The notes under the pieces are model-generated. The model searched no databases, was not told where the DNA came from, and saw only the letters and a program-made list of their open reading frames with translations. Below are positions 31,788 through 44,186 of a stretch of DNA of 64,000 nucleotides, piece after piece. How positions within the stretch are numbered: the stretch's first letter is position 1; every line of letters begins with the position of its first letter. This DNA is from a phage: the NCBI GenBank assembly GCA_022520065.1, contig GCA_022520065.1_3942.1; one strand, given 5' to 3'. The translations under genes were made by a program, and so were the position numbers.

Positions 31788-32087
31788 TTAATCTGCCAAC
31801 CTTAAATTAAAATTTACACCAAATTTTTCGCATACTTCCAACATATACTCAAGCGAGACATTACCAGTAAGGTGGATTATGTTGGACACACGAGCCTGAG
31901 AGATACCACAAATTTTAGCAACTTGCTCTTGAGAAAGACCTCTGGATTTAATCTCTCTCTTAAAACGATGTGCAACGAAGTCTCTCATTTCGTCTACATC
32001 CATTGGACAAATATAACTCTCCATTTCAGCCTCTCTGTCAGCCTCCCAATCATCTTGTGGAGCATAAGGGTCAAAAACCTCATTCAT
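31788..32087 (-). CDS. helix-turn-helix DNA-binding protein (XRE/Cro-like)
   Basis: HTH-like segment LSQEQVAKICGISQARVSNIIH; start moved to ATG 32087 to reduce overlap. Confidence 0.45.
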   Translation of the reverse strand: MNEVFDPYAPQDDWEADREAEMESYICPMDVDEMRDFVAHRFKREIKSRGLSQEQVAKICGISQARVSNIIHLTGNVSLEYMLEVCEKFGVNFNLRLAD

Positions 32088-32292
32088 CTTTCTTCTTCCG
32101 TTTGCGTGAAGTGTCAATCAATGAATCTATGTTTGTAGCCCTAACCTTTTCACGTTCATCGTTAAGATAATCATCAAGAGCCTTTTCAATCTGTGAATCA
32201 TCTTGACAGATAACTGTAAAGACTGTAAAGCCGTCTGTATCGTCAATTATCTTACCATAACCGCCTCTGGGATGTAACTTTTTAAGAGCCAT
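32080..32292 (-). CDS. hypothetical protein
   Basis: 70-aa ORF, Lys-rich C-terminus. Confidence 0.35.
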   Translation of the reverse strand: MALKKLHPRGGYGKIIDDTDGFTVFTVICQDDSQIEKALDDYLNDEREKVRATNIDSLIDTSRKRKKKDE

Positions 32293-35416: not shown

Positions 35417-35613
35417 TATTCAATGTCTATAAGTTCTTGTGCAATGCTTTTAAGGTTACTTTTAAGGAAAACTTTCTCACCACCAGACAGGGAGGTATTA
35501 TCAATGAGTCTGTTCATTCTCTCAAACAACTTCTGTTTACGATTCTTGATGGTTTCCTTTGAAGCACCTTTCATCATTGCTGCATGGGTTCTTCCACGGT
35601 GGCTCATAATCAC
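35398..35613 (-). CDS. hypothetical protein
   Basis: 71-aa basic ORF. Confidence 0.4.
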   Translation of the reverse strand: MIMSHRGRTHAAMMKGASKETIKNRKQKLFERMNRLIDNTSLSGGEKVFLKSNLKSIAQELIDIEYWRHQK

Positions 35614-35668: not shown

Positions 35669-38368
35669 TTAGTGAACCTCAAGCCAGCTTTTACCAACCT
35701 TACCAGTACCTGTAACAAGTGTTTCTTTCTTAAGACCTAAGTTCTTAGAAGCTTGCCCGTAATACCAATCAGTAACTGCTTTTACTTCTGCCGTCATACT
35801 CTCTGGACATTCCCAGCTTGTCTCATCGTGATATGCGCACAATAAGCGAGCACCTATAGCTGGTTTACGCCCATTTAGTTTCATCAACCCTTCGTCAATC
35901 ATGCGACGACAAGCAAGGTTAATTGCCTCATTTTGAATCTGGGCCTCTGAACCCATCAAAAGGTAGTTCAACAGTTTGTGTGGAGATTTACACCACAACC
36001 AAGCTCCAGCAACCTTTACAAAACCCCCTTTAGAAATTGCAGCAGTCTTACCAAACACCTCTTCAAGTACCTTTTTAGTTGCTTTGTAGTCAGCTTCCAA
36101 GTCATCTAACAGCTTCTTAATTTTAGGCAAACGTATAAAGTAAGTTTGTTTAGTCAGTGCACCTTCCTGAGTAGTTGCAGCTTTAATCGTCTTAGCAAAC
36201 TTCTCATCCCCTGCACCGAACAGCAGTGCATAGATACCATTCTTAGCTTTCTTACGACCCTTACTAATCTCATGGAGAAGATTCTCATCCTGAGTAGCTC
36301 GACAAGTCAAGATATCCTGCTCATCATTCAAGCTAAAGTAGATACTGTTCAGTGTATGTGCATCAGTCCCTGAATAGACAACGTACAGGTCATTCTCAGA
36401 GTCATAACGAAGGTACTTATCAATCTCTGGGTTTAGGTACTCATCAAAATGTTTGCAGTAATAGCGTCCATCTTCTTGACGAATAAACTCAATCTCTTCT
36501 TTACCTTGCGTTACCGCTTTGGTGAACTCTTTATCACCCATAAAGTTACAAAGAAGAACTAGCTGGGCTGAGTTCATATCTACAGAGACAACGTTAGTAC
36601 CTTCCTCACAAATCCACACTGCCCTCATTGGTTCCCCATAGACAGCAGCACCAGACGGTACGTTTACAATACCATATTGTGTCATACGTCCAGTTGAAGT
36701 ACCAAACACCATTGCGCCAGCACTAAGGCGACCATCAGGACGAATCTGGTTCAACCAACCTTTTTCATCATCCTTTGAGTTCTCAATAGTTCTGCGTCTG
36801 TGCATCAAAGTATAGTACTTAGCAATCTTCTGTCCAAGCTCACCTTCAATCGTATCATAAGATGATTCCGTAAGTTTTGGTGAAGTACGGATTAAGCAAG
36901 GTTCAAGCAAATCTGTGTACTTCTTCACAGACCAGTTATGCTCGATGTACTGGACGCCTTCATGCTCGACATAACTCAAACCACACCGTTCAACCATCTC
37001 CTGCCACTTAGGATGCTTTGTAATCATCTTTTTGTTGTCTTTGAAACGACAAACTTTGACAGGGCGACCATCTGAGTCTTTCTTGTAGTTCCAGTCATCT
37101 GGAATCCAACCAACTGATTTCAAGTAGTCTTTAACAACTGCTACCTGAGTCATACGAGAAACTTCAAACTCAATTGGTGTATATGGTGCATCAATCAATC
37201 CTGTGTAGCGACTTGAATCCAGTTCAAAGTGGTTAACAACATGGCTGTTATAGTACTTCACAGTCTTAACTGTCTTCACTGGCTTCCAGTCTTTGCATTT
37301 CTTACCAATCTTTGCATTCAACTCGTTGCAAATTGCACGAGCATCCTTCATTGCTACAAAACCTTCCTTGTACTCTTCACCAGTTACAGAGTTGGTTGGT
37401 GTATAGCAATTTCTCTTTTCAATGTTAAAAATCTTTGTAGTTGGCTTACCAAATGGCTTGATTTCATATGTCTGCATCTCACCGTTACGTACCTGCTGAC
37501 GGTACTTCGTCTTAGGGTACTTGGTAATTCTCTTCAGTCCATCTGCATGACCGAACGCTTCAACATACTCATTCCAAGCTTTTGCAAACTCTTCTCCAGT
37601 AACTTTACCTTTAGTCTTAATAGTTGGAGGAAGATGTGGTTCAACTTCTGAAGCAAGCTCATTAGTCAACTTGTCAAGTTCCTTCACATGGAACTCCATA
37701 AGCTCTTTATCAGCTTTCCAACCATTGATAGCTTGTTGACTCATCCAGAAAGATGTTTCTTTAGCTCGCATATAGGTTTCATAAGTGTCTATACCACACT
37801 TCTTTAACTTCAGGTATTCATTATCCAGTGCACATTTAGTTTTGGCGTTAATACGGATATCTTCTACAACACGAGTGAAGATTTCTGCATTCCATACACC
37901 CCAATGTTCAATCTCTGGTTTACGTACACCAACACGAGCACCCCATGCTGCCAAGCCATGAGCACCTTTATAGCCTTTTGGAGTTGGTCTATCCATCCAC
38001 TGAACACGAGATTGGATAAGAGAATCCTGAAAGAAATTACTCCACGGCTTACACTTTGGATTATCAAAGTTCCATAAATCAGGTGCAATGTGATTGAAAA
38101 CCCACCAGTCATAACCCAGACCATTATGGATGCAAAGTCGTTTCGCCTTTAATGCAAACTCAATACCTTCACGCAAACCACCCTTAATGTACTTGGTGTA
38201 CTTGTGACCGAGGATAGGCTCATCTGTAAAAACCCATACAGGTGGCTCTTCATCATCAGATTTATAGTCTGCGAAAGCCATTACGTGCACTTTAGTGAAC
38301 TCAAGGAGTAAACCATCAGTTTCTGTATCACCAACTAAATGTAAGTTTTTAAAATCTACGTTTTCCAT
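35669..38368 (-). CDS. DNA polymerase, family A, with 3'-5' exonuclease domain
   Basis: Exo motif VGDTETDGL, polymerase motifs (VSVDMNSAQLVLL, KNGIYALLFGAG, CAYHDE); start set to ATG 38368 with AGAGGGA RBS. Confidence 0.85.
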   Translation of the reverse strand: MENVDFKNLHLVGDTETDGLLLEFTKVHVMAFADYKSDDEEPPVWVFTDEPILGHKYTKYIKGGLREGIEFALKAKRLCIHNGLGYDWWVFNHIAPDLWNFDNPKCKPWSNFFQDSLIQSRVQWMDRPTPKGYKGAHGLAAWGARVGVRKPEIEHWGVWNAEIFTRVVEDIRINAKTKCALDNEYLKLKKCGIDTYETYMRAKETSFWMSQQAINGWKADKELMEFHVKELDKLTNELASEVEPHLPPTIKTKGKVTGEEFAKAWNEYVEAFGHADGLKRITKYPKTKYRQQVRNGEMQTYEIKPFGKPTTKIFNIEKRNCYTPTNSVTGEEYKEGFVAMKDARAICNELNAKIGKKCKDWKPVKTVKTVKYYNSHVVNHFELDSSRYTGLIDAPYTPIEFEVSRMTQVAVVKDYLKSVGWIPDDWNYKKDSDGRPVKVCRFKDNKKMITKHPKWQEMVERCGLSYVEHEGVQYIEHNWSVKKYTDLLEPCLIRTSPKLTESSYDTIEGELGQKIAKYYTLMHRRRTIENSKDDEKGWLNQIRPDGRLSAGAMVFGTSTGRMTQYGIVNVPSGAAVYGEPMRAVWICEEGTNVVSVDMNSAQLVLLCNFMGDKEFTKAVTQGKEEIEFIRQEDGRYYCKHFDEYLNPEIDKYLRYDSENDLYVVYSGTDAHTLNSIYFSLNDEQDILTCRATQDENLLHEISKGRKKAKNGIYALLFGAGDEKFAKTIKAATTQEGALTKQTYFIRLPKIKKLLDDLEADYKATKKVLEEVFGKTAAISKGGFVKVAGAWLWCKSPHKLLNYLLMGSEAQIQNEAINLACRRMIDEGLMKLNGRKPAIGARLLCAYHDETSWECPESMTAEVKAVTDWYYGQASKNLGLKKETLVTGTGKVGKSWLEVH

Positions 38369-38625
38369 TTTTACTCCCTCTAAAATCATTAACCTCATAC
38401 ATTACTGCAAAAAATTATAAAAAGCAAGTTGACAATGTACTTGACAAGGTGTTAATCTTTGCGAAGTGGGTTTTTACTTAAAAGGTTACTTAACAGTTTA
38501 ACTATACAGATACTTTAAAACTCTTAAAAGATTATTTAATAGCTTTTAAAAAGCTTTAAAGTATAACGTATAGAATACGTTAAGATAAAAGATTAAAACT
38601 TAATAGTTACTTAAAAGAGGCTTAC

Positions 38626-39048
38626 ATGCAGAAAATGTTTGTTCACCCAGACATAGCTGACTTTGTTAGAGCTTTGCAGAAGTTGGAAGAACTTGACATT
38701 GCTGCTCAACGGGAATATGCTCACCATCACAGGAGAATGGTTGATATACAACATGAAATAGAGTTGTCTGAAAACTATGAAGATGACTTAAAATGCTCTG
38801 TATTTGAGCATATGAAAGATGTTGCTACAGCTAGACGTAAAGCTAAAGACACAGTTGCTTTACTAGATTCTCTTAAAAAGAGGTTGCAAAGTGGTACAGA
38901 CCTGTGTAATCTAGCGTCACTGATTAATGATGTTGAAACTTCTTGGGATAGACATTACTATCCACGTTCTGAAAAGACACTTGACTTTTCTTCATCCGAA
39001 AACTTAAAATGTTCTAGAAAGAAACTTAACCAACTGAGAGAGAAATAA
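38626..39048 (+). CDS. hypothetical early protein
   Basis: First ORF of the plus-strand early block, AAAAGAGG RBS. Confidence 0.5.
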   Translation: MQKMFVHPDIADFVRALQKLEELDIAAQREYAHHHRRMVDIQHEIELSENYEDDLKCSVFEHMKDVATARRKAKDTVALLDSLKKRLQSGTDLCNLASLINDVETSWDRHYYPRSEKTLDFSSSENLKCSRKKLNQLREK

Positions 39049-39049
39049 T

Positions 39050-39862
39050 ATGAATATCAATGTAGAACAAATGCTTGAAGAAAAAGGTATTGACGAAGCA
39101 TTCTTAATCAATGCCGTAGAAAGCATGGCTATGATTCTTCGTGGAAACAACTATACAGAACAGTTTATGCCTGCAAGCTATAACCTGCCTAAAGACAAGT
39201 CTGATAACGGTGCTTTTGCAGAACAGGTTAATATGATGCTGTGTGACAAAACACTTGCTTTAGCATCTATTGTTGTAGGTGTTGATGCTCTTGCAGAGTT
39301 CATTTTTTATGAGATGCAGAAAAATGACTATATTGCCATGACCTCTGAAGAAAAAGACTCGCTACTGCTCTTAGGTTATGATGAGCTAGTTAACCTATTA
39401 ATTTCGTCAACGAGTGCTGTTATGGCTGCTCTTGAGAAGCGCATGGAAGAGAAGCTGTCACGATATGAAAAACTTGATTGGGGTGTAGAGGAATTAAACC
39501 CACGAATCAAAGAGATTATCCAGCAAACCAAAGATTCTTTGGAAGAAGCTGTAAAAAATGATTCTGTAGCTGACATAGAGCCACTTCAGGTGAAAGTTGC
39601 ATTGATGATTCCAGCCATCTCCACGATGATGAATATCGTTGCACTAATCCAGCTTTCACAGATGATGGGCACAAGCATTGAGTTCATTGAGAGTATGACT
39701 GGTGGTGTGAGTATGCAAGCAATCAATGATGTTCTGGTGAGCATTGGTGCTTCAATCATTGAAGAGAAGCTGCGCATTAACTTTGGTGATGATTTTGTGA
39801 AGCAAATCTCAGCTATGGCTGAAAAAGAGTATTCACAGACTAATACTGACCAACTGCACTAA
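39050..39862 (+). CDS. hypothetical early protein
   Basis: 270-aa ORF followed by terminator. Confidence 0.5.
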   Translation: MNINVEQMLEEKGIDEAFLINAVESMAMILRGNNYTEQFMPASYNLPKDKSDNGAFAEQVNMMLCDKTLALASIVVGVDALAEFIFYEMQKNDYIAMTSEEKDSLLLLGYDELVNLLISSTSAVMAALEKRMEEKLSRYEKLDWGVEELNPRIKEIIQQTKDSLEEAVKNDSVADIEPLQVKVALMIPAISTMMNIVALIQLSQMMGTSIEFIESMTGGVSMQAINDVLVSIGASIIEEKLRINFGDDFVKQISAMAEKEYSQTNTDQLH

Positions 39863-39880
39863 GTCTTTATAAACCTTACA

Positions 39881-39904
39881 AGCCTCCTTAGTTGGGGGCT
39901 TTTT
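39881..39904 (+). terminator. Rho-independent terminator
   Basis: Hairpin agcctcc-ttagtt-gggggct followed by tttt. Confidence 0.5.
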
Positions 39905-39923
39905 AGTAATTAAGGGAGATAGA

Positions 39924-40667
39924 ATGAGTAATATTATCGCATTTACTGGAAAGGCACGTTCTGGAAAAGACACCTCATGTTCTATTGTTAAGAATATCCT
40001 AGAAGATGAGTATGGCTACAATGTTGCAGTAATGGCCTATGCAGACAACCTTAAACTCTCTGCATCAAGGATATTTGACTTGACTTGGAATGACCTGTAC
40101 GGTGAAACTAAAGAGACTCCACAGGTTTTTGATTTATCATACTCTGAACTGATGTTCAAGGTCACAGAAGCTATGGAGTTTACCTTCAGAGGCGAACGTT
40201 ATCATACGGACTTCAAACTCATGTCAGAGTTAACCGGACGATTAATTATGGAACTAAAGAAGGTTGCTAAACCGACTCTATTAACACGTCTGGGATTTAG
40301 TAAAAAGTATAAATTTTCATCAAGACAGATTCAACAGATTTGGGGTACTGAAGTTATCCGTAAAGTTATGGGTGACAAATTCTGGGCTAAAGACCTCGAA
40401 AAACGAATGGTAAATTTCTTTGACGTTTGCTCACTTAAGAATCAGGACGGTGTTGTTTTAATCAGTGACTTAAGGTTTGACTCTGAAGCTGAGTGGCTGA
40501 GCAGATTTGCACACCAAACTATTGAAGTAAAAAGAGACAATGTGGATAAGGTTTCGTCACATGTTTCAGAAAATGGGATTTCTACCAAATATGCGCGTGA
40601 CATTATTCATAATAATGGTACTCTTGCAGACCTTGAAAGCAAGTTAAGAGCTATCCTGAAAATTTAA
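39924..40667 (+). CDS. deoxynucleoside monophosphate kinase-like P-loop protein
   Basis: N-terminal P-loop IIAFTGKARSGKDT resembling T4 gp1-type dNMP kinase. Confidence 0.55.
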   Translation: MSNIIAFTGKARSGKDTSCSIVKNILEDEYGYNVAVMAYADNLKLSASRIFDLTWNDLYGETKETPQVFDLSYSELMFKVTEAMEFTFRGERYHTDFKLMSELTGRLIMELKKVAKPTLLTRLGFSKKYKFSSRQIQQIWGTEVIRKVMGDKFWAKDLEKRMVNFFDVCSLKNQDGVVLISDLRFDSEAEWLSRFAHQTIEVKRDNVDKVSSHVSENGISTKYARDIIHNNGTLADLESKLRAILKI

Positions 40668-40675
40668 AAGAGAGA

Positions 40676-40876
40676 ATGAAGATGAGAGTAAAAGATAATT
40701 TTAAAGTTATTGACCATCGTTTAGTGGAACTCTCATCTCTTTCCAATGAGGTAATGATTGAACGTCTTAAGAGAGTTGAATCACGAAGGAAAGAGATTGC
40801 AGATGAGATTCATGAACTGGACAAGATTGAAAATGGATTGAAGGCAGAACTACAACGAAGAGGTGCTAATGTCTAA
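40676..40876 (+). CDS. hypothetical coiled-coil protein
   Basis: 66-aa ORF. Confidence 0.4.
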   Translation: MKMRVKDNFKVIDHRLVELSSLSNEVMIERLKRVESRRKEIADEIHELDKIENGLKAELQRRGANV

Positions 40877-42854
40877 AGGTCGTAAATTGAAAGAGGCTGG
40901 TCAGTTTGTTGGTCATTGTGCATGTCCACGTTGTGGTTCATCAGATGCTGGTTCAATCTACCATCACGACGATGATTCTTATTCAATGACTTGCTTTAGT
41001 TGTAATAAAGGTTTCCCAGAGTGGGATTTTGATAAAGGACAAATTGTGAGCACTTATTCTACTGGTTCAGATAATAAAAACCGTACTTTCCGTGGAATGG
41101 ATTTAGACGATGTAAAAGAAAACCTTGAAGCAATGGACTTGAAAGACAGGAAGATTCCTGCAAAAGTTCTTGAACGCTTAGGTATCAAGGTTGACATTGA
41201 CAGTGATGGTGAAATTGATGCACATTTCTATCCGACTTACAAACGTAATGAAGATGGCAAACTAGAACATGTTGGCTACCGTGTTCGTCACCGTTACCCA
41301 GAGGACCATCCAAAAGAACACCTACGTGGTAAGCTAAAAGACTTTTCAGGTGGTGTTGGAGACATTAAAGGTGAACTGGCAATGTTCGGTTCATGGATTG
41401 CTCCAGAAGGTGGCAACCGTCTATTCATCTGGGAAGGTGAGATGGAATGTGCTACGGCAATCTACATGACTTCTCTGGCAATTAAAGATAAGTCTCGTCG
41501 TAAGAACTACTGTCACGTATCTGTTCCATCTGGTGCAAACATTAAGTCTATCAAAGACAACTATCAGTACATCACATCATTTGATGAGATTTACTTGTGC
41601 TTTGATAACGATGAAGCAGGTGCTAAAGCTACCAAAGAGGCTGCTGGTATCCTTCCGATTGAGAAGGTTCGTTTATTCCAGTATCCAGAAGGTGTAAAAG
41701 ACCTTAATGAATGGTGGACAAAGTTCTATAAAGAGAAAGACACAGTTCTGGAAGGATTTAAGCAGCGTATCTACAATGCACCTCGTTACTGTCCTGCTGG
41801 TATCAAGAACTTTGCAGACGGTTTTGAGGCAATGAAGAATCGTGGTCAGATTCCATTGATTCCTTTCCCAGAATCTTTCGGGGATTTGAACAGATTGACT
41901 TATGGTGGTTACGGTTTAGGTGAGATTACGACTATTGCAGCCCCATCTTCGGTAGGTAAGTCAGCTTACACTCGTGAGATGATTTATTCAGCTTGGAAAG
42001 AAACTGATTATAATATCGGTGTAATTCCTGTAGAAGATACCTATGAAGAGTTGATGGAGATGCTCTGTGCAATCCACCTAAGCAAGCAGATTTCTGAGAT
42101 TCCTTATGATGAACGAGATTGGGATGAATTAAAGGGAGCACACGCCGAGCTTTCAAAAGGTCGTCGCATTCATATCGTTGACCATCAAGGGGCAATTGAC
42201 CAAGATAACCTGCTGGAGTTTGTTGACTATCTTGTTAATAGTTTAGACTGTAAGATTATCATTCTTGACCCTATTACGTTGGCTCTGTCACGTTCAGATA
42301 CGGATGAAGAGGAAGTTTTGTCTGAGCTATTACGTCGTTGCAAACGCTACCAGTATGCACAGGTAAACGTCTGCCACGTTCGTAAGAGTGCAGGTGGTCA
42401 GAAAGCCAACTCTGAAGGTGGAGATATCTCTGAAGAGGATATTAAGGGTTCTGGTGCGTATTTCCAGATTTCCATGAACAACATTCTGTTAATGCGTAAC
42501 AAGGTTGACCCAGACCCTGTTAAGAAAAACTTGACAAAAATCAAGTTAACTAAGTGTCGTCGTCATGGTAAGTCAACAGGTATTGCTGGTCATACTTGGT
42601 ACAATCCAGACACAGGACGTCTTATCAAAGCTTCTGGATGTGGTGTTGACATTGATGGTGCAGCAGAAAATATTCGTCAACAGTTTGGTATTGGTGAAGC
42701 TGAAGACCATTATGACGACTCTTTACCTCATTATGAAGATGAAGTGTTTGACCGTGAGACTGGTGAAGTCTATACTGAAGAACAGCGTCAAAGCTCAACG
42801 ATTCCACCTGTATTAAGTGAGGATGCAGATGACTGCCCGTTTGAAACTGAGTGA
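40869..42854 (+). CDS. bifunctional DNA primase / DnaB-like helicase (T7 gp4-like)
   Basis: N-terminal zinc ribbon CPRCGS...CFSCNKG, central TOPRIM-like region, C-terminal helicase with Walker A SSVGKSAYT; start set to ATG 40869. Confidence 0.8.
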   Translation: MSKGRKLKEAGQFVGHCACPRCGSSDAGSIYHHDDDSYSMTCFSCNKGFPEWDFDKGQIVSTYSTGSDNKNRTFRGMDLDDVKENLEAMDLKDRKIPAKVLERLGIKVDIDSDGEIDAHFYPTYKRNEDGKLEHVGYRVRHRYPEDHPKEHLRGKLKDFSGGVGDIKGELAMFGSWIAPEGGNRLFIWEGEMECATAIYMTSLAIKDKSRRKNYCHVSVPSGANIKSIKDNYQYITSFDEIYLCFDNDEAGAKATKEAAGILPIEKVRLFQYPEGVKDLNEWWTKFYKEKDTVLEGFKQRIYNAPRYCPAGIKNFADGFEAMKNRGQIPLIPFPESFGDLNRLTYGGYGLGEITTIAAPSSVGKSAYTREMIYSAWKETDYNIGVIPVEDTYEELMEMLCAIHLSKQISEIPYDERDWDELKGAHAELSKGRRIHIVDHQGAIDQDNLLEFVDYLVNSLDCKIIILDPITLALSRSDTDEEEVLSELLRRCKRYQYAQVNVCHVRKSAGGQKANSEGGDISEEDIKGSGAYFQISMNNILLMRNKVDPDPVKKNLTKIKLTKCRRHGKSTGIAGHTWYNPDTGRLIKASGCGVDIDGAAENIRQQFGIGEAEDHYDDSLPHYEDEVFDRETGEVYTEEQRQSSTIPPVLSEDADDCPFETE

Positions 42855-43110
42855 TAGTTATAAAAGAGAGGGGTTCATACCCTTCTTTGAAGAAAAAAGT
42901 TTAAATGAATTTCAGGAAGAGTGTTTGACAAAGGTTGATAGGTTCTATAGAATGCTCTACATGAAATGTGATGGAGGCGTTGAGGTAGAAGAAAAGTTCC
43001 ATCACAGTATGATAACAGTCACTATTACTATACCTCGACATAATATTGGTTGGCTGTTTATAATTAAAGAAAATGTGTTTGAATATCAAGTATATCGGAG
43101 AATATCATGA
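42829..43110 (+). CDS. hypothetical protein
   Basis: ORF overlapping primase-helicase 3' end; start uncertain. Confidence 0.3.
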   Translation: MTARLKLSDSYKREGFIPFFEEKSLNEFQEECLTKVDRFYRMLYMKCDGGVEVEEKFHHSMITVTITIPRHNIGWLFIIKENVFEYQVYRRIS

Positions 43111-43263: not shown

Positions 43264-43292
43264 TTGACAATAGAGTATCAACAAATTAGAAT
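43264..43292 (+). promoter_or_regulatory. sigma70-like promoter TTGACA-N17-TAGAAT upstream of the SSB-like gene
   Basis: Exact -35 at 43264-43269, 17-nt spacer, -10 TAGAAT at 43287-43292. Confidence 0.55.
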
Positions 43293-43328: not shown

Positions 43329-44186
43329 ATGTCTAAAGTTGTTAAAATGAAAGCTCCGGTAGAGAAGTACAATGGTACTGAACGTCAAACTCTGCGTTAC
43401 CTTCTGAAAGATGTTTGGTTTTATTACCTGAACACTTCACCACGTCCGGGAAAAGGTAAATCTATTGATAAGAAATTCCCAGGCAAAGATTGTAACTACA
43501 GTGTTTCAATTCTGGCAGAAGATGGTAACAAGCTGTTTAAAGAGTTTACTAAGTCTAAGAAAAACCCAGAAGGTTGGGATAAAGTTACTACTGAAGCAGT
43601 TGATGCAGATGACTTCGAAGAGAAGTTTGGTTGCAAACCACCATTTGAAGCAGACACTTACTACATCTTGAAAGTAAGTCGTGCAGCAGCTTATAAAGAT
43701 GGTGCTGTGTGGACAGCTAAACAGTCATTCCCTGTAATGCTGATTGAAGAAGTAAATGGTAAGCGTGTAGCTGTTAAACAGCCGATGAAGAAAATCAAAG
43801 CTCAAGCATCCGATAAACATGAAGATGACAAGAACTATGATGTAATTCATCCAGATATTGCAGTTGGTAACGGTTCTTTTGGTAGTGTGATTCTTTCTAC
43901 TCACTTCTACACTTTTGAGAACAATGTTCTGACAAAACCTATTCAGGAACAGTTTATCATTGACACCCTTGTACCTTACACTGGTGGTAACGGTGCTAAC
44001 GGTGAACCTGAACTGGATGAAGACGAACTGGCTATGCTTGGTCTTGACGGTGTTGAAGATAACGGTGAAATCACTGAAGAAGACGCAAAAGACCACAAAC
44101 CTTCGAACAATTCTGATGATGGTGACGATGAAGACTTGCCAGACCCAGATGACGAAGAAGATGAAGACTTCGATACAGAAGACTAA
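43329..44186 (+). CDS. single-stranded DNA-binding protein (T7 gp2.5-like, probable)
   Basis: Extremely acidic C-terminal tail ending DEEDEDFDTED; between primase-helicase and exonuclease; strong promoter upstream. Confidence 0.55.
   Translation: MSKVVKMKAPVEKYNGTERQTLRYLLKDVWFYYLNTSPRPGKGKSIDKKFPGKDCNYSVSILAEDGNKLFKEFTKSKKNPEGWDKVTTEAVDADDFEEKFGCKPPFEADTYYILKVSRAAAYKDGAVWTAKQSFPVMLIEEVNGKRVAVKQPMKKIKAQASDKHEDDKNYDVIHPDIAVGNGSFGSVILSTHFYTFENNVLTKPIQEQFIIDTLVPYTGGNGANGEPELDEDELAMLGLDGVEDNGEITEEDAKDHKPSNNSDDGDDEDLPDPDDEEDEDFDTED

Follow-up and report, generated by a model that had tools for sequence, protein, structure and literature searches.

A conserved divergent control region and two Ounavirinae-specific genes as a candidate control hub of the replication regulon in a Felix O1-type phage

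The primary origin of phage T7 comprises the tandem promoters phi1.1A and phi1.1B and an AT-rich stretch, with the small genes 1.1 and 1.2 downstream. In phage T4, oriF and oriG combine a promoter with a DNA-unwinding element, and the transcription-dependent origin of phage lambda joins iterons of 18-19 bp to an AT-rich region. For the Felix O1-type phages (Ounavirinae), which serve Salmonella typing, food safety and therapy, both the transcriptional timing and the start of replication have been stated to be unknown (PMC3185647, PMC4690856). The present analysis concerns a locus of one such phage, at positions 38369-39906 of a 64,000-nucleotide stretch of its DNA (contig GCA_022520065.1_3942.1; the whole stretch is hereafter the window). 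The locus consists of the spacer between a leftward DNA polymerase gene and a rightward block of replication genes, the first two genes of that block, gp140 and gp270, and the terminator behind them. With about even confidence, it is read here as the control hub of the phage's replication regulon, dependent on the sigma-70 of the host, and gp140 and gp270 as non-virion proteins of the replication module. The phage itself encodes no RNA polymerase (PMC4690856).

Parts of this picture are already in the literature or in records, namely the divergent control region, for which promoters were assumed between genes 96 and 97 when the Felix O1 genome was described (PMC3185647), a promoter annotation and a knock-down phenotype. 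New here are the assignment of a rightward promoter, P97, with an extended -10 element; an internal promoter of gp270, P98; the measurement of the spacer as the most AT-rich and most conserved stretch of its neighborhood; the conserved word pairs and a covarying dyad; and the argument that an essential Ounavirinae gene has been mislabeled as a tail protein. The locus is the leading candidate for the main control point of the replication regulon and likewise for its origin. Among the few genes of the family that are sensitive to knock-down, one lies here; it is filed as a tail protein in databases and in a functional-genomics paper, and correction of that label would provide a defined cis element to test and a new family of essential non-virion proteins.

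Anatomy and constraint of the control region

In a sequence search, 38300-39950 is 100% identical to Escherichia phage VpaE1_ev035 and 92-99% identical to more than 200 Felixounavirus genomes; the window thus belongs to Felixounavirus. The polymerase gene (minus strand) is followed by the spacer, an open reading frame (ORF) of 140 amino acids, one of 270, the terminator, a deoxynucleoside monophosphate (dNMP) kinase gene, a 66-amino-acid ORF and a primase-helicase gene. By annotation, the replication genes are those for a family-A polymerase, a primase/helicase and an exonuclease, together with one for an acidic-tailed protein that is possibly of the single-strand-binding kind. The order of polymerase, ~250-bp spacer, gp140, gp270, dNMP kinase and primase-helicase is kept in Felixounavirus, Suspvirus (SUSP1), Mooglevirus (Sf16 and Moogle) and Pectobacterium phage Arno162; it is also kept in the Erwinia Kolesnikvirus phages, but with one gene inserted on each side. 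The control region contains the following features.

38340-38760: ultra-conserved block in 20 Felixounavirus genomes, made up of the polymerase 5' end, the whole spacer and the first ~45 codons of gp140
38368-38366, minus strand: polymerase start codon ATG, with its ribosome-binding site GAGGGAG at 38380-38374; invariant in the alignment
38427-38399, minus strand: candidate polymerase promoter, TTGCTT (38427 to 38422), N17, TAATGT (38404 to 38399); score 7.2, rank 501 of ~640,000
38429-38458, plus strand: predicted promoter P97, -35 TTGACA (38429-38434), 18-bp spacer, extended -10 TGtTAATCT (38450-38458); predicted start at about A38464/65
38461-38470, plus strand: GCGAAGTGGG, the sole G+C-rich island, where the transcript is predicted to start
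38471-38620, plus strand: AT-rich leader, predicted to be transcribed, with three word pairs
38535-38560, plus strand: predicted hairpin or dyad 1, around the palindrome AGCTTTTAAAAAGCT (38541-38555); 11 pairs, 98% of cells paired
38564-38582, plus strand: predicted hairpin or dyad 2, TAACGTAT-AGA-ATACGTTA; 7 pairs, all 100% paired

An earlier note on this DNA had described a divergent control region, 227 bp long, ahead of an early plus-strand block and marked by tandem TTGACA hexamers at 38429-38434 and 38441-38446, repeated words and a palindrome at 38541-38555. The region itself is borne out by a conserved, high-scoring sigma-70 promoter on the first TTGACA and by exceptional constraint, and the hexamers, words and palindrome all lie where the note had placed them. 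Its length needs revision: the spacer measures 257 bp (38369-38625), because the conserved polymerase start is the ATG at 38368, behind the GAGGGAG. The in-frame extension upstream of this ATG is interrupted by a stop codon in Sf16, and the polymerases of SUSP1, Sf16 and Moogle are all annotated from its equivalent.

Within Felixounavirus, the constraint on this region is striking in both its depth and its extent. In the 20 genomes, between 3 and 5 sites per 100 bp vary from 38400 to 38700, as against 10-55 in the flanks, and when 200-bp windows were scanned across 28000-49500 (21.5 kb) in these genomes, the two most conserved were 38526-38725 (99.85%) and 38310-38509 (99.15%). Nucleotide diversity, computed over 21 distinct Felixounavirus loci, is 0.0099 in the spacer and 0.0165 in gp140, with values of 0.03-0.08 in the 5' part of the polymerase gene, 0.069 in the dNMP kinase gene and 0.105 in gp270. 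Synonymous sites, too, hardly vary in the first ~45 codons of gp140, with three rare variable sites in ~135 nt. Across the genes as a whole, synonymous divergence (dS) within the genus is 0.05-0.09 for gp140 and 0.25-0.32 for gp270, and nonsynonymous divergence (dN) is ~0 (in 20 genomes) and ~0.035, respectively. An antisense ORF of 47 amino acids (38611-38754, minus strand) was considered as the cause of the synonymous constraint and rejected, as it is broken by stop codons in other genera. In composition, 38471-38620 has the lowest G+C content of any 150 bp in the window, 20.7%, compared with 27.3% for the next lowest and a mean of 39.3%. The cumulative GC skew has a local minimum at the spacer, coincident with the switch in gene orientation, and a search of the AT-rich block for A-tract phasing or curvature detected no periodicity.

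TTGACA occurs 70 times in the window where 68.7 occurrences are expected, which is the chance level, so that by count alone the tandem hexamers are meaningless. The built-in promoter scan requires four of six matches in each hexamer and consequently missed P97. A weight-matrix scan of our own, which credits an extended -10 and ranked ~640,000 positions, gives P97 a score of 12.7 and rank 17. The site has the elements of a sigma-70 promoter of the extended -10 type, namely a -35 TTGACA, a TGn preceding a -10 with T-12, A-11 and T-7, and a spacing within 17+/-1 bp. Its -35 (38429-38434) is invariant in all genera that infect Enterobacteriaceae and in the Erwinia phages, which have TTGACA-N17-TACATT at the P97 position. 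Neither the TGnTAnTCT nor the two TTGACAA words vary in Felixounavirus, Suspvirus and Mooglevirus (the last having TGnTAGTCT), and the same plus-strand promoter was annotated by the depositors of the AYO145A record. The second TTGACA (38441-38446) lies inside the P97 spacer, the two TTGACAA words being 12 bp apart. Further downstream, within the ultra-conserved 5' part of gp140, stands another promoter-like sequence, TTGACA-N17-TATGCT (38693-38721, plus strand), with 10 of 12 matches.

On the opposite strand, TTGCTT-N17-TAATGT has the best minus-strand score of the region, and Sf16 and Moogle preserve its TAnnnT in the form TAGGGT; an alternative -10 for the polymerase gene, a perfect TATAAT (38419 to 38414), occurs in Felixounavirus only. 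A polymerase promoter at 38399-38427 is proposed as a weak candidate. The -35 elements of the two back-to-back promoters would be separated by 1 bp.

From its predicted start, the P97 transcript would begin with a leader of ~160 nt that is 79% A+U. At the start itself, CGAAGTGGGTTTT is invariant in an alignment of five phages from three genera, and two IMG/VR variants carry substitutions; the G+C-rich island might play a role in promoter escape or in RNA-DNA hybrid formation. The leader contains three pairs of the 8-nt word [CT]TTAAnAG, with the members of each pair 11-12 bp apart (38477/38489, 38523/38535 and 38599/38610). The form CTTAAAAG, found at 38477, 38523 and 38610, is enriched in the window (16 copies, 4.8 expected; none of 100 shuffles reached 16), and a looser word, [CT]T[TA]AANAG, occurs eight times in 200 bp here and at most four times anywhere else, which makes this its sole dense cluster in the window. 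Of the three pairs, the first (CTnAAnAG-N4-CTTnAnAG) does not vary even in the Erwinia and Pectobacterium phages. CTTAAnAG-N4-CTTnAnAG is also frequent across the window (20 copies, 2 expected). As a genome-wide regulon motif it was rejected, since the other sites are a mixed set of coding or terminator sequences. The word pair is duplicated exactly at 35447-35466 (minus strand; CTTAAAAGTAACCTTAAAAG), in a small ORF just 3' of the polymerase gene, and conservation of this copy in Sf16 is only 65%.

The two dyads, at 38535-38560 and 38564-38582, were both retained by RNAalifold. The palindrome of the first has 7-bp arms around one central base and is unique in the window; its hairpin shows one change, U-A to U-G, in two genera. 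The second dyad is likewise unique in the window, and two of its pairs carry compensatory changes, UA to AU or the reverse (7 versus 4 sequences) and CG to UA or the reverse (8 versus 3). This pattern would suit an RNA hairpin and a DNA dyad equally well, and the events are few. Folding of the whole leader is marginally better than that of shuffled sequences (z = -1.96), and a covariance-model search of 38200-40000 against Rfam 15 gave no match up to E = 1. The polymerase-side operon encodes a 109-amino-acid helix-turn-helix protein of the Cro/C1 type (31788-32117, minus strand; Pfam HTH_3, E 6e-10), whose Sf16 counterpart, gp69, carries a transcriptional-regulator annotation; the 109-amino-acid protein is a candidate for binding the spacer dyads.

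gp140, gp270 and the tail-protein label

The two genes, their internal promoter and the terminator are laid out as follows.

38626-39048, plus strand: gp140 (Felix O1 p180/ORF97; SUSP1 agp047; phrog_4039), 140 amino acids, 16.5 kDa
38981-39010, plus strand: predicted promoter P98 in the 3' end of gp140, TTGACT (38981), N18, TAAAAT; the -10 ends 39 nt before the gp270 ATG
39050-39862, plus strand: gp270 (Felix O1 p181/ORF98; SUSP1 agp048; phrog_4251 'minor tail protein'), 270 amino acids, ~30 kDa
39339-39398, plus strand: hypervariable two-allele segment of gp270, residues ~97-116; diversity 0.315 compared with 0.05-0.10 in the rest of the gene
39880-39906, plus strand: Rho-independent terminator or attenuator after gp270, AAGCCUCC/GGGGGCUU and then a U run; -13.9 kcal/mol

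Both ORFs had been listed in the earlier note, as had a terminator after them and a lack of recognizable motifs, and all three points hold. Searches of Pfam, NCBIfam, PADLOC and PDB sequences gave no match for gp140 or gp270, and PHROGs yielded family names only. The terminator is a hairpin with an 8-bp stem (39880-39887/39894-39901) followed by a U run, as expected of Rho-independent termination, and one is annotated 3' of gp270 in AYO145A and Moogle too. The further proposal that the tandem hexamers drive both genes survives in part: P97 uses the first TTGACA, and gp270 probably has a promoter of its own inside gp140. This site, P98, scores 13.3 in the weight-matrix scan (rank 11 in the window) and is kept in Suspvirus (TAAAGT), Mooglevirus (TAAGAT) and Pectobacterium phage Arno162 (TTGACT-N18-TAGTAT). 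Its -35 doubles as codons for an invariant L-D-F, and its conservation is partly due to coding. The counterparts in Felix O1 and SUSP1 were assigned by position and by the notes in the records.

gp140 is a full-length member of PHROG 4039 (E 3e-83), a family whose function is not named and which is confined to Ounavirinae. More than 200 genomes encode an identical protein, and between genera the identity of gp140 is 62-75%, compared with 37-43% for gp270. An AlphaFold model with a predicted local distance difference test score (pLDDT) of 71 shows an antiparallel helical hairpin (8-50/53-88) plus two short helices; invariant residues cluster near the hairpin tip (HRRMVD.QHEIELSE.Y), 12 invariant residues are basic, and fold searches returned generic coiled coils only. 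The acidic tip of the hairpin had raised the possibility of a secondary-channel factor of the Gre/DksA type. The fold match by which such a factor would be recognized, to a Gre/DksA coiled coil plus a globular domain, was not obtained. In the CRISPRi-ART knock-down screen of SUSP1, the homologue agp047 was scored Not Fit (PMC11879866), which makes for a weak call of dispensability. gp140 may be described as a strongly conserved helical hairpin that may serve as a regulator or adaptor and may bind nucleic acid.

gp270 begins 1 nt past the gp140 stop codon. It is acidic (isoelectric point 4.3), predicted to be all-alpha, and, as a sequence, a full-length member of PHROG 4251 (E 1e-142). Two of its helices are hydrophobic and carry charged residues in homologues; a membrane location is therefore unlikely. 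A search of 1.84 billion representative proteins recovered only the family itself, with 10 representatives, all from Ounavirinae; 13 diverse members compared with Pfam at E up to 5 shared no match, and a PDB profile search found nothing. It is the fastest-evolving gene of the neighborhood. Its hypervariable segment exists in two allele classes, with ~75% and >90% identity to the window, and these assort independently of the variable segment in the polymerase gene (r = 0.06), which indicates mosaic recombination; covariation of the two as a hint of partnership was looked for and rejected on the same value. The polymerase segment (36125-36640, minus strand) has a diversity of 0.14-0.40 among Felixounavirus genomes and likewise falls into two allele classes, at ~77-81% and 95-97% identity.

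Phenotype, timing, virion composition and gene position all bear on the role of gp270. In the CRISPRi-ART study of SUSP1, agp048 is among only 19 Fit genes, those for which knock-down impaired infection of a laboratory strain (1.575, p 0.029), as are the DNA polymerase and exonuclease genes, and the primase-helicase gene is Not Fit (PMC11879866). In Felix O1, reverse-transcription PCR found ORFs 96, 97, 98, 99 and 101 to be maximal at 25 min and not at 5 min, with tail genes 72-77 maximal at 60 min, and Gp98 is not among the 17 virion proteins (PMC3185647). Mass spectrometry of VpaE1 virions identified 22 proteins, and its authors left the homologue (ORF97) 'hypothetical' even so, despite 'minor tail protein' being the name of its best BLAST match. 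In the cryo-electron microscopy atlas of the Bas63 virion, which covers at least 23 gene products, one comes from outside the structural module, an immunoglobulin-like decoration protein, and several wrong 'tail' annotations in the genus are flagged (PMC12609058). A check of the literature found no gp270 homologue among the modeled virion proteins of Bas63 or Sf14, and the gene lies outside the morphogenesis module, between the polymerase and dNMP kinase genes. The name attached to PHROG 4251 thus has no backing, for gp270, from virion proteomics, cryo-electron microscopy, gene position or timing. It was nevertheless on the PHROG name alone that agp048 was counted as an ambiguous 'tail protein' in the knock-down study (PMC11879866). 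The tail-protein label on gp270 is very probably an annotation artifact. That gp270 acts in replication or in its initiation is a more tentative proposition, which the company it keeps in phenotype and timing suggests.

The terminator stands ~20 nt before the ATG of the dNMP kinase gene, so the replication genes beyond it would need either read-through or promoters located upstream of them.

Readings of the locus

Taken together, these features suggest a scheme in which the strong P97 would fire rightwards and a weaker back-to-back promoter leftwards into the DNA polymerase gene. P97 would produce an mRNA whose ~160-nt AU-rich leader is constrained at almost every base and carries iteron-like word pairs and two small hairpins. 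This leader may be a dense cis-regulatory element, acting on DNA and/or RNA, that sets the level and timing of gp140 and gp270; by read-through of the attenuator at 39880-39906, its control could extend to the dNMP kinase and primase-helicase genes. Both products would be Ounavirinae-specific non-virion proteins made with the polymerase in mid-infection. gp270, with its own promoter within gp140, would be required for productive infection, as an accessory of DNA replication or initiation and not as a tail protein, and gp140 would be a regulator or adaptor, dispensable in the laboratory and possibly nucleic-acid binding.

Several observations weigh against the control-hub reading. The second TTGACA has no -10 partner, and its conservation is left without explanation; the candidate polymerase promoter is weak and differs between genera; and 'no obviously homologous' promoters were recognized here in the Felix O1 genome paper (PMC3185647). 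The spacer is 81% identical to that of Mooglevirus Sf16, where the genome average is 80%. Exceptional constraint is consequently established within the genus and, between genera, for individual elements only, and the stronger statement that the spacer is more conserved than everything else was dropped, since it holds within Felixounavirus and is merely average against Sf16. For gp270, the p-value of the homologue is modest, the AlphaFold2 model (pLDDT 46) is unusable for a fold search and hence offers no fold evidence for a replication role, and an acidic protein is an unlikely DNA binder. For gp140, the dispensability call is itself weak because false negatives are common in CRISPRi-ART, the primase-helicase gene also being Not Fit. 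Finally, a search of the literature for Ounavirinae transcriptomes, mapped starts, origins, or escape mutants in gp140 or gp270 found none, nor did any Ounavirinae phage have transcription start, binding or replication data for this locus.

Two further readings do not exclude the control-hub reading, and the first of them extends it. In the first, which is possible though on the doubtful side, the AT-rich conserved block is the primary replication origin, activated by transcription from P97. The G-rich transcript start would form an RNA-DNA hybrid, the 150-bp AT-rich stretch would melt, the word pairs and dyads would be assembly sites, and gp140 and/or gp270, encoded in cis beside the block, would serve the T7-gp4-like primase-helicase as a novel initiator or helicase-loading pair. 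No other 150 bp of the 64 kb are as AT-rich, and the block is also the most conserved stretch of the 21.5 kb scanned, with a constraint that spans non-coding DNA and synonymous sites alike. Its word pairs, about one helical turn apart, survive in distant genera. It sits between the polymerase gene and the primase-helicase block, where gene orientation switches and cumulative GC skew has its local minimum, and, as in T7 and T4, a strong promoter adjoins an exceptionally AT-rich conserved stretch inside the replication module; the T7, T4 oriF/oriG and lambda origins each share parts of this layout, and gp270 is needed for infection. However, this support is all circumstantial: the skew minimum is confounded with gene orientation, A-tract phasing is absent, the words are short, with similar pairs at other places in coding DNA, gp270 is acidic, the gp140 homologue was scored dispensable in SUSP1, and the literature search turned up no report of an origin in these phages. 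The most specific form of the proposal is less likely still, namely that 38440-38740 is a transcription-activated, iteron-bearing origin whose initiator or helicase-loading pair, gp140 and gp270, is encoded in cis and has no relatives outside Ounavirinae; the conserved word pairs are present, and the two proteins match no initiator family. If it were true, the name 'minor tail protein' would hide an essential replication-initiation factor.

In the second, the constraint would act at the level of RNA, with the leader, hairpins and start of the gp140 coding sequence forming a translational operator or stability element on the model of the T4 gene 32 and gene 43 mRNAs, bound by gp140 itself, by a single-strand-binding protein or by the polymerase. 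This is unlikely. In its favor, conservation runs from the predicted start through the leader into ~45 codons, synonymous sites included, the hairpins are kept with compensatory changes, it is on the plus strand alone that the U-A to U-G change is tolerated, and gp140 carries its 12 invariant basic residues on a helical hairpin. On the other hand, the folding signal of the leader is marginal, Rfam gives no match, the compensatory changes in the palindrome suit a DNA dyad equally, just two covariation events are independent, and conservation extends over the untranscribed promoter side as well.

A different view altogether was taken in the earlier note, in which the first genes of this block were suspected of being early host-takeover or anti-defense genes; gp270, for example, might inhibit a host protein or serve as its adaptor, and be essential in that role. 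Both genes are indeed family-restricted orphans heading an operon, gp270 is acidic with a freely recombining hypervariable two-allele segment such as an arms-race interface would show, and the gp140 homologue is dispensable in a laboratory host. Nevertheless, the view is improbable. The gp270 homologue is required on a defense-poor laboratory strain, both genes are universal and syntenic in the subfamily and lie inside the replication module, both reach maximal expression at 25 min together with the replication genes, and a gp140 dN of ~0 in 20 genomes is unlike that of arms-race proteins. Judged by its homologues, gp270 is neither dispensable on such a strain, nor variable in presence, nor immediate-early, and comes close to the conserved housekeeping component that the note itself had set against its proposal. 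For gp140, whose homologue is Not Fit and yet whose gene is universal and nearly invariant, an accessory or regulatory role is possible.

It is very improbable that gp270 is a true minor tail or virion protein, for instance the source of the small helical density that tips the puncture apparatus of Bas63: although the label is widespread in GenBank records and PHROG 4251, the SUSP1 homologue is Fit as many structural genes are, and the density is a trimeric two-helix feature without an assigned gene that an all-alpha protein might fill, its authors attribute it to the baseplate module (PMC12609058), no experiment can be traced behind the label, which in AYO145A sits beside similarity notes to the Felix O1 (hypothetical) and wV8 homologues and is a term the wV8 paper never uses, and the virion, position and timing data given above all speak otherwise.

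Neighboring features and known systems

In the Erwinia Kolesnikviruses, the two additional genes at the locus (L006 2787-3263 and 3841-4515; L008 likewise) are an HNH endonuclease gene between the polymerase gene and the control region, and a gene for 204-224 amino acids between the gp140 and gp270 homologues; these phages also have a second promoter-like site, TTGACT-N18-TATGAT, directly 5' of the gp140 homologue. Downstream of the locus in the window, 40718-40917, which covers the 3' part of the 66-amino-acid ORF and the start of the primase-helicase gene, is the third most conserved 200 bp of the 21.5 kb (98.85%). Three near-consensus sigma-70 sites lie within 400 bp 3' of the primase-helicase gene (42925-42953, 43035-43064 and 43264-43292, plus strand), which suggests strong internal promoters in the replication block. 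The last of them (TTGACA-N17-TAGAAT), one of the two sigma-70 sites with the highest scores in the window, lies 5' of a gene (43329-44186, plus strand) for a 285-amino-acid acidic protein (isoelectric point 4.5) whose C-terminal end, DDEEDEDFDTED, recalls the acidic tail of single-strand-binding proteins of the T7 gp2.5 type. This protein has no match in Pfam or NCBIfam, and its syntenic counterpart in SUSP1, agp054, is 'hypothetical' and Fit. Felixounavirus sequence was also encountered in records named 'Staphylococcus phage SA1' (UNVERIFIED_ORG) and in those of two 'Campylobacter' phages, which are probably mislabeled or contaminated deposits.

Among known systems, the T7 and T4 origins resemble the locus in having a promoter directly 5' of the region's most AT-rich DNA within a replication gene cluster, and T7 also in the small genes without assigned function that lie just downstream of the promoter and AT-rich element. 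Unlike T7, transcription here would be by the host sigma-70 polymerase and not by a phage polymerase, the AT-rich stretch is longer and contains iteron-like words and dyads, and the site is one proposed from sequence. The lambda origin likewise has repeats about one helical turn apart beside an AT-rich stretch and genes needed for infection, with constraint that spills into the adjoining coding sequence, but the words of the present locus are of 8 nt and its two proteins have no similarity to O, P or any initiator family. At the level of transcription, the perfect -35, 18-bp spacer and TGnTAnnnT of P97, with the opposite-strand -35 only 1 bp away, are those of divergent sigma-70 extended -10 regions of enterobacteria and of early phage genes; an ultra-conserved, repeat-rich leader of ~160 nt and 79% A+T, and an extra conserved TTGACAA within the promoter spacer, set the locus apart from the usual members of that class. 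Similarly, the T4 gene 32 and gene 43 operators share with it a long A+U-rich leader with small structured elements 5' of replication-module genes, although the binding protein is putative, and the thermodynamic signal weak, in the leader described here.

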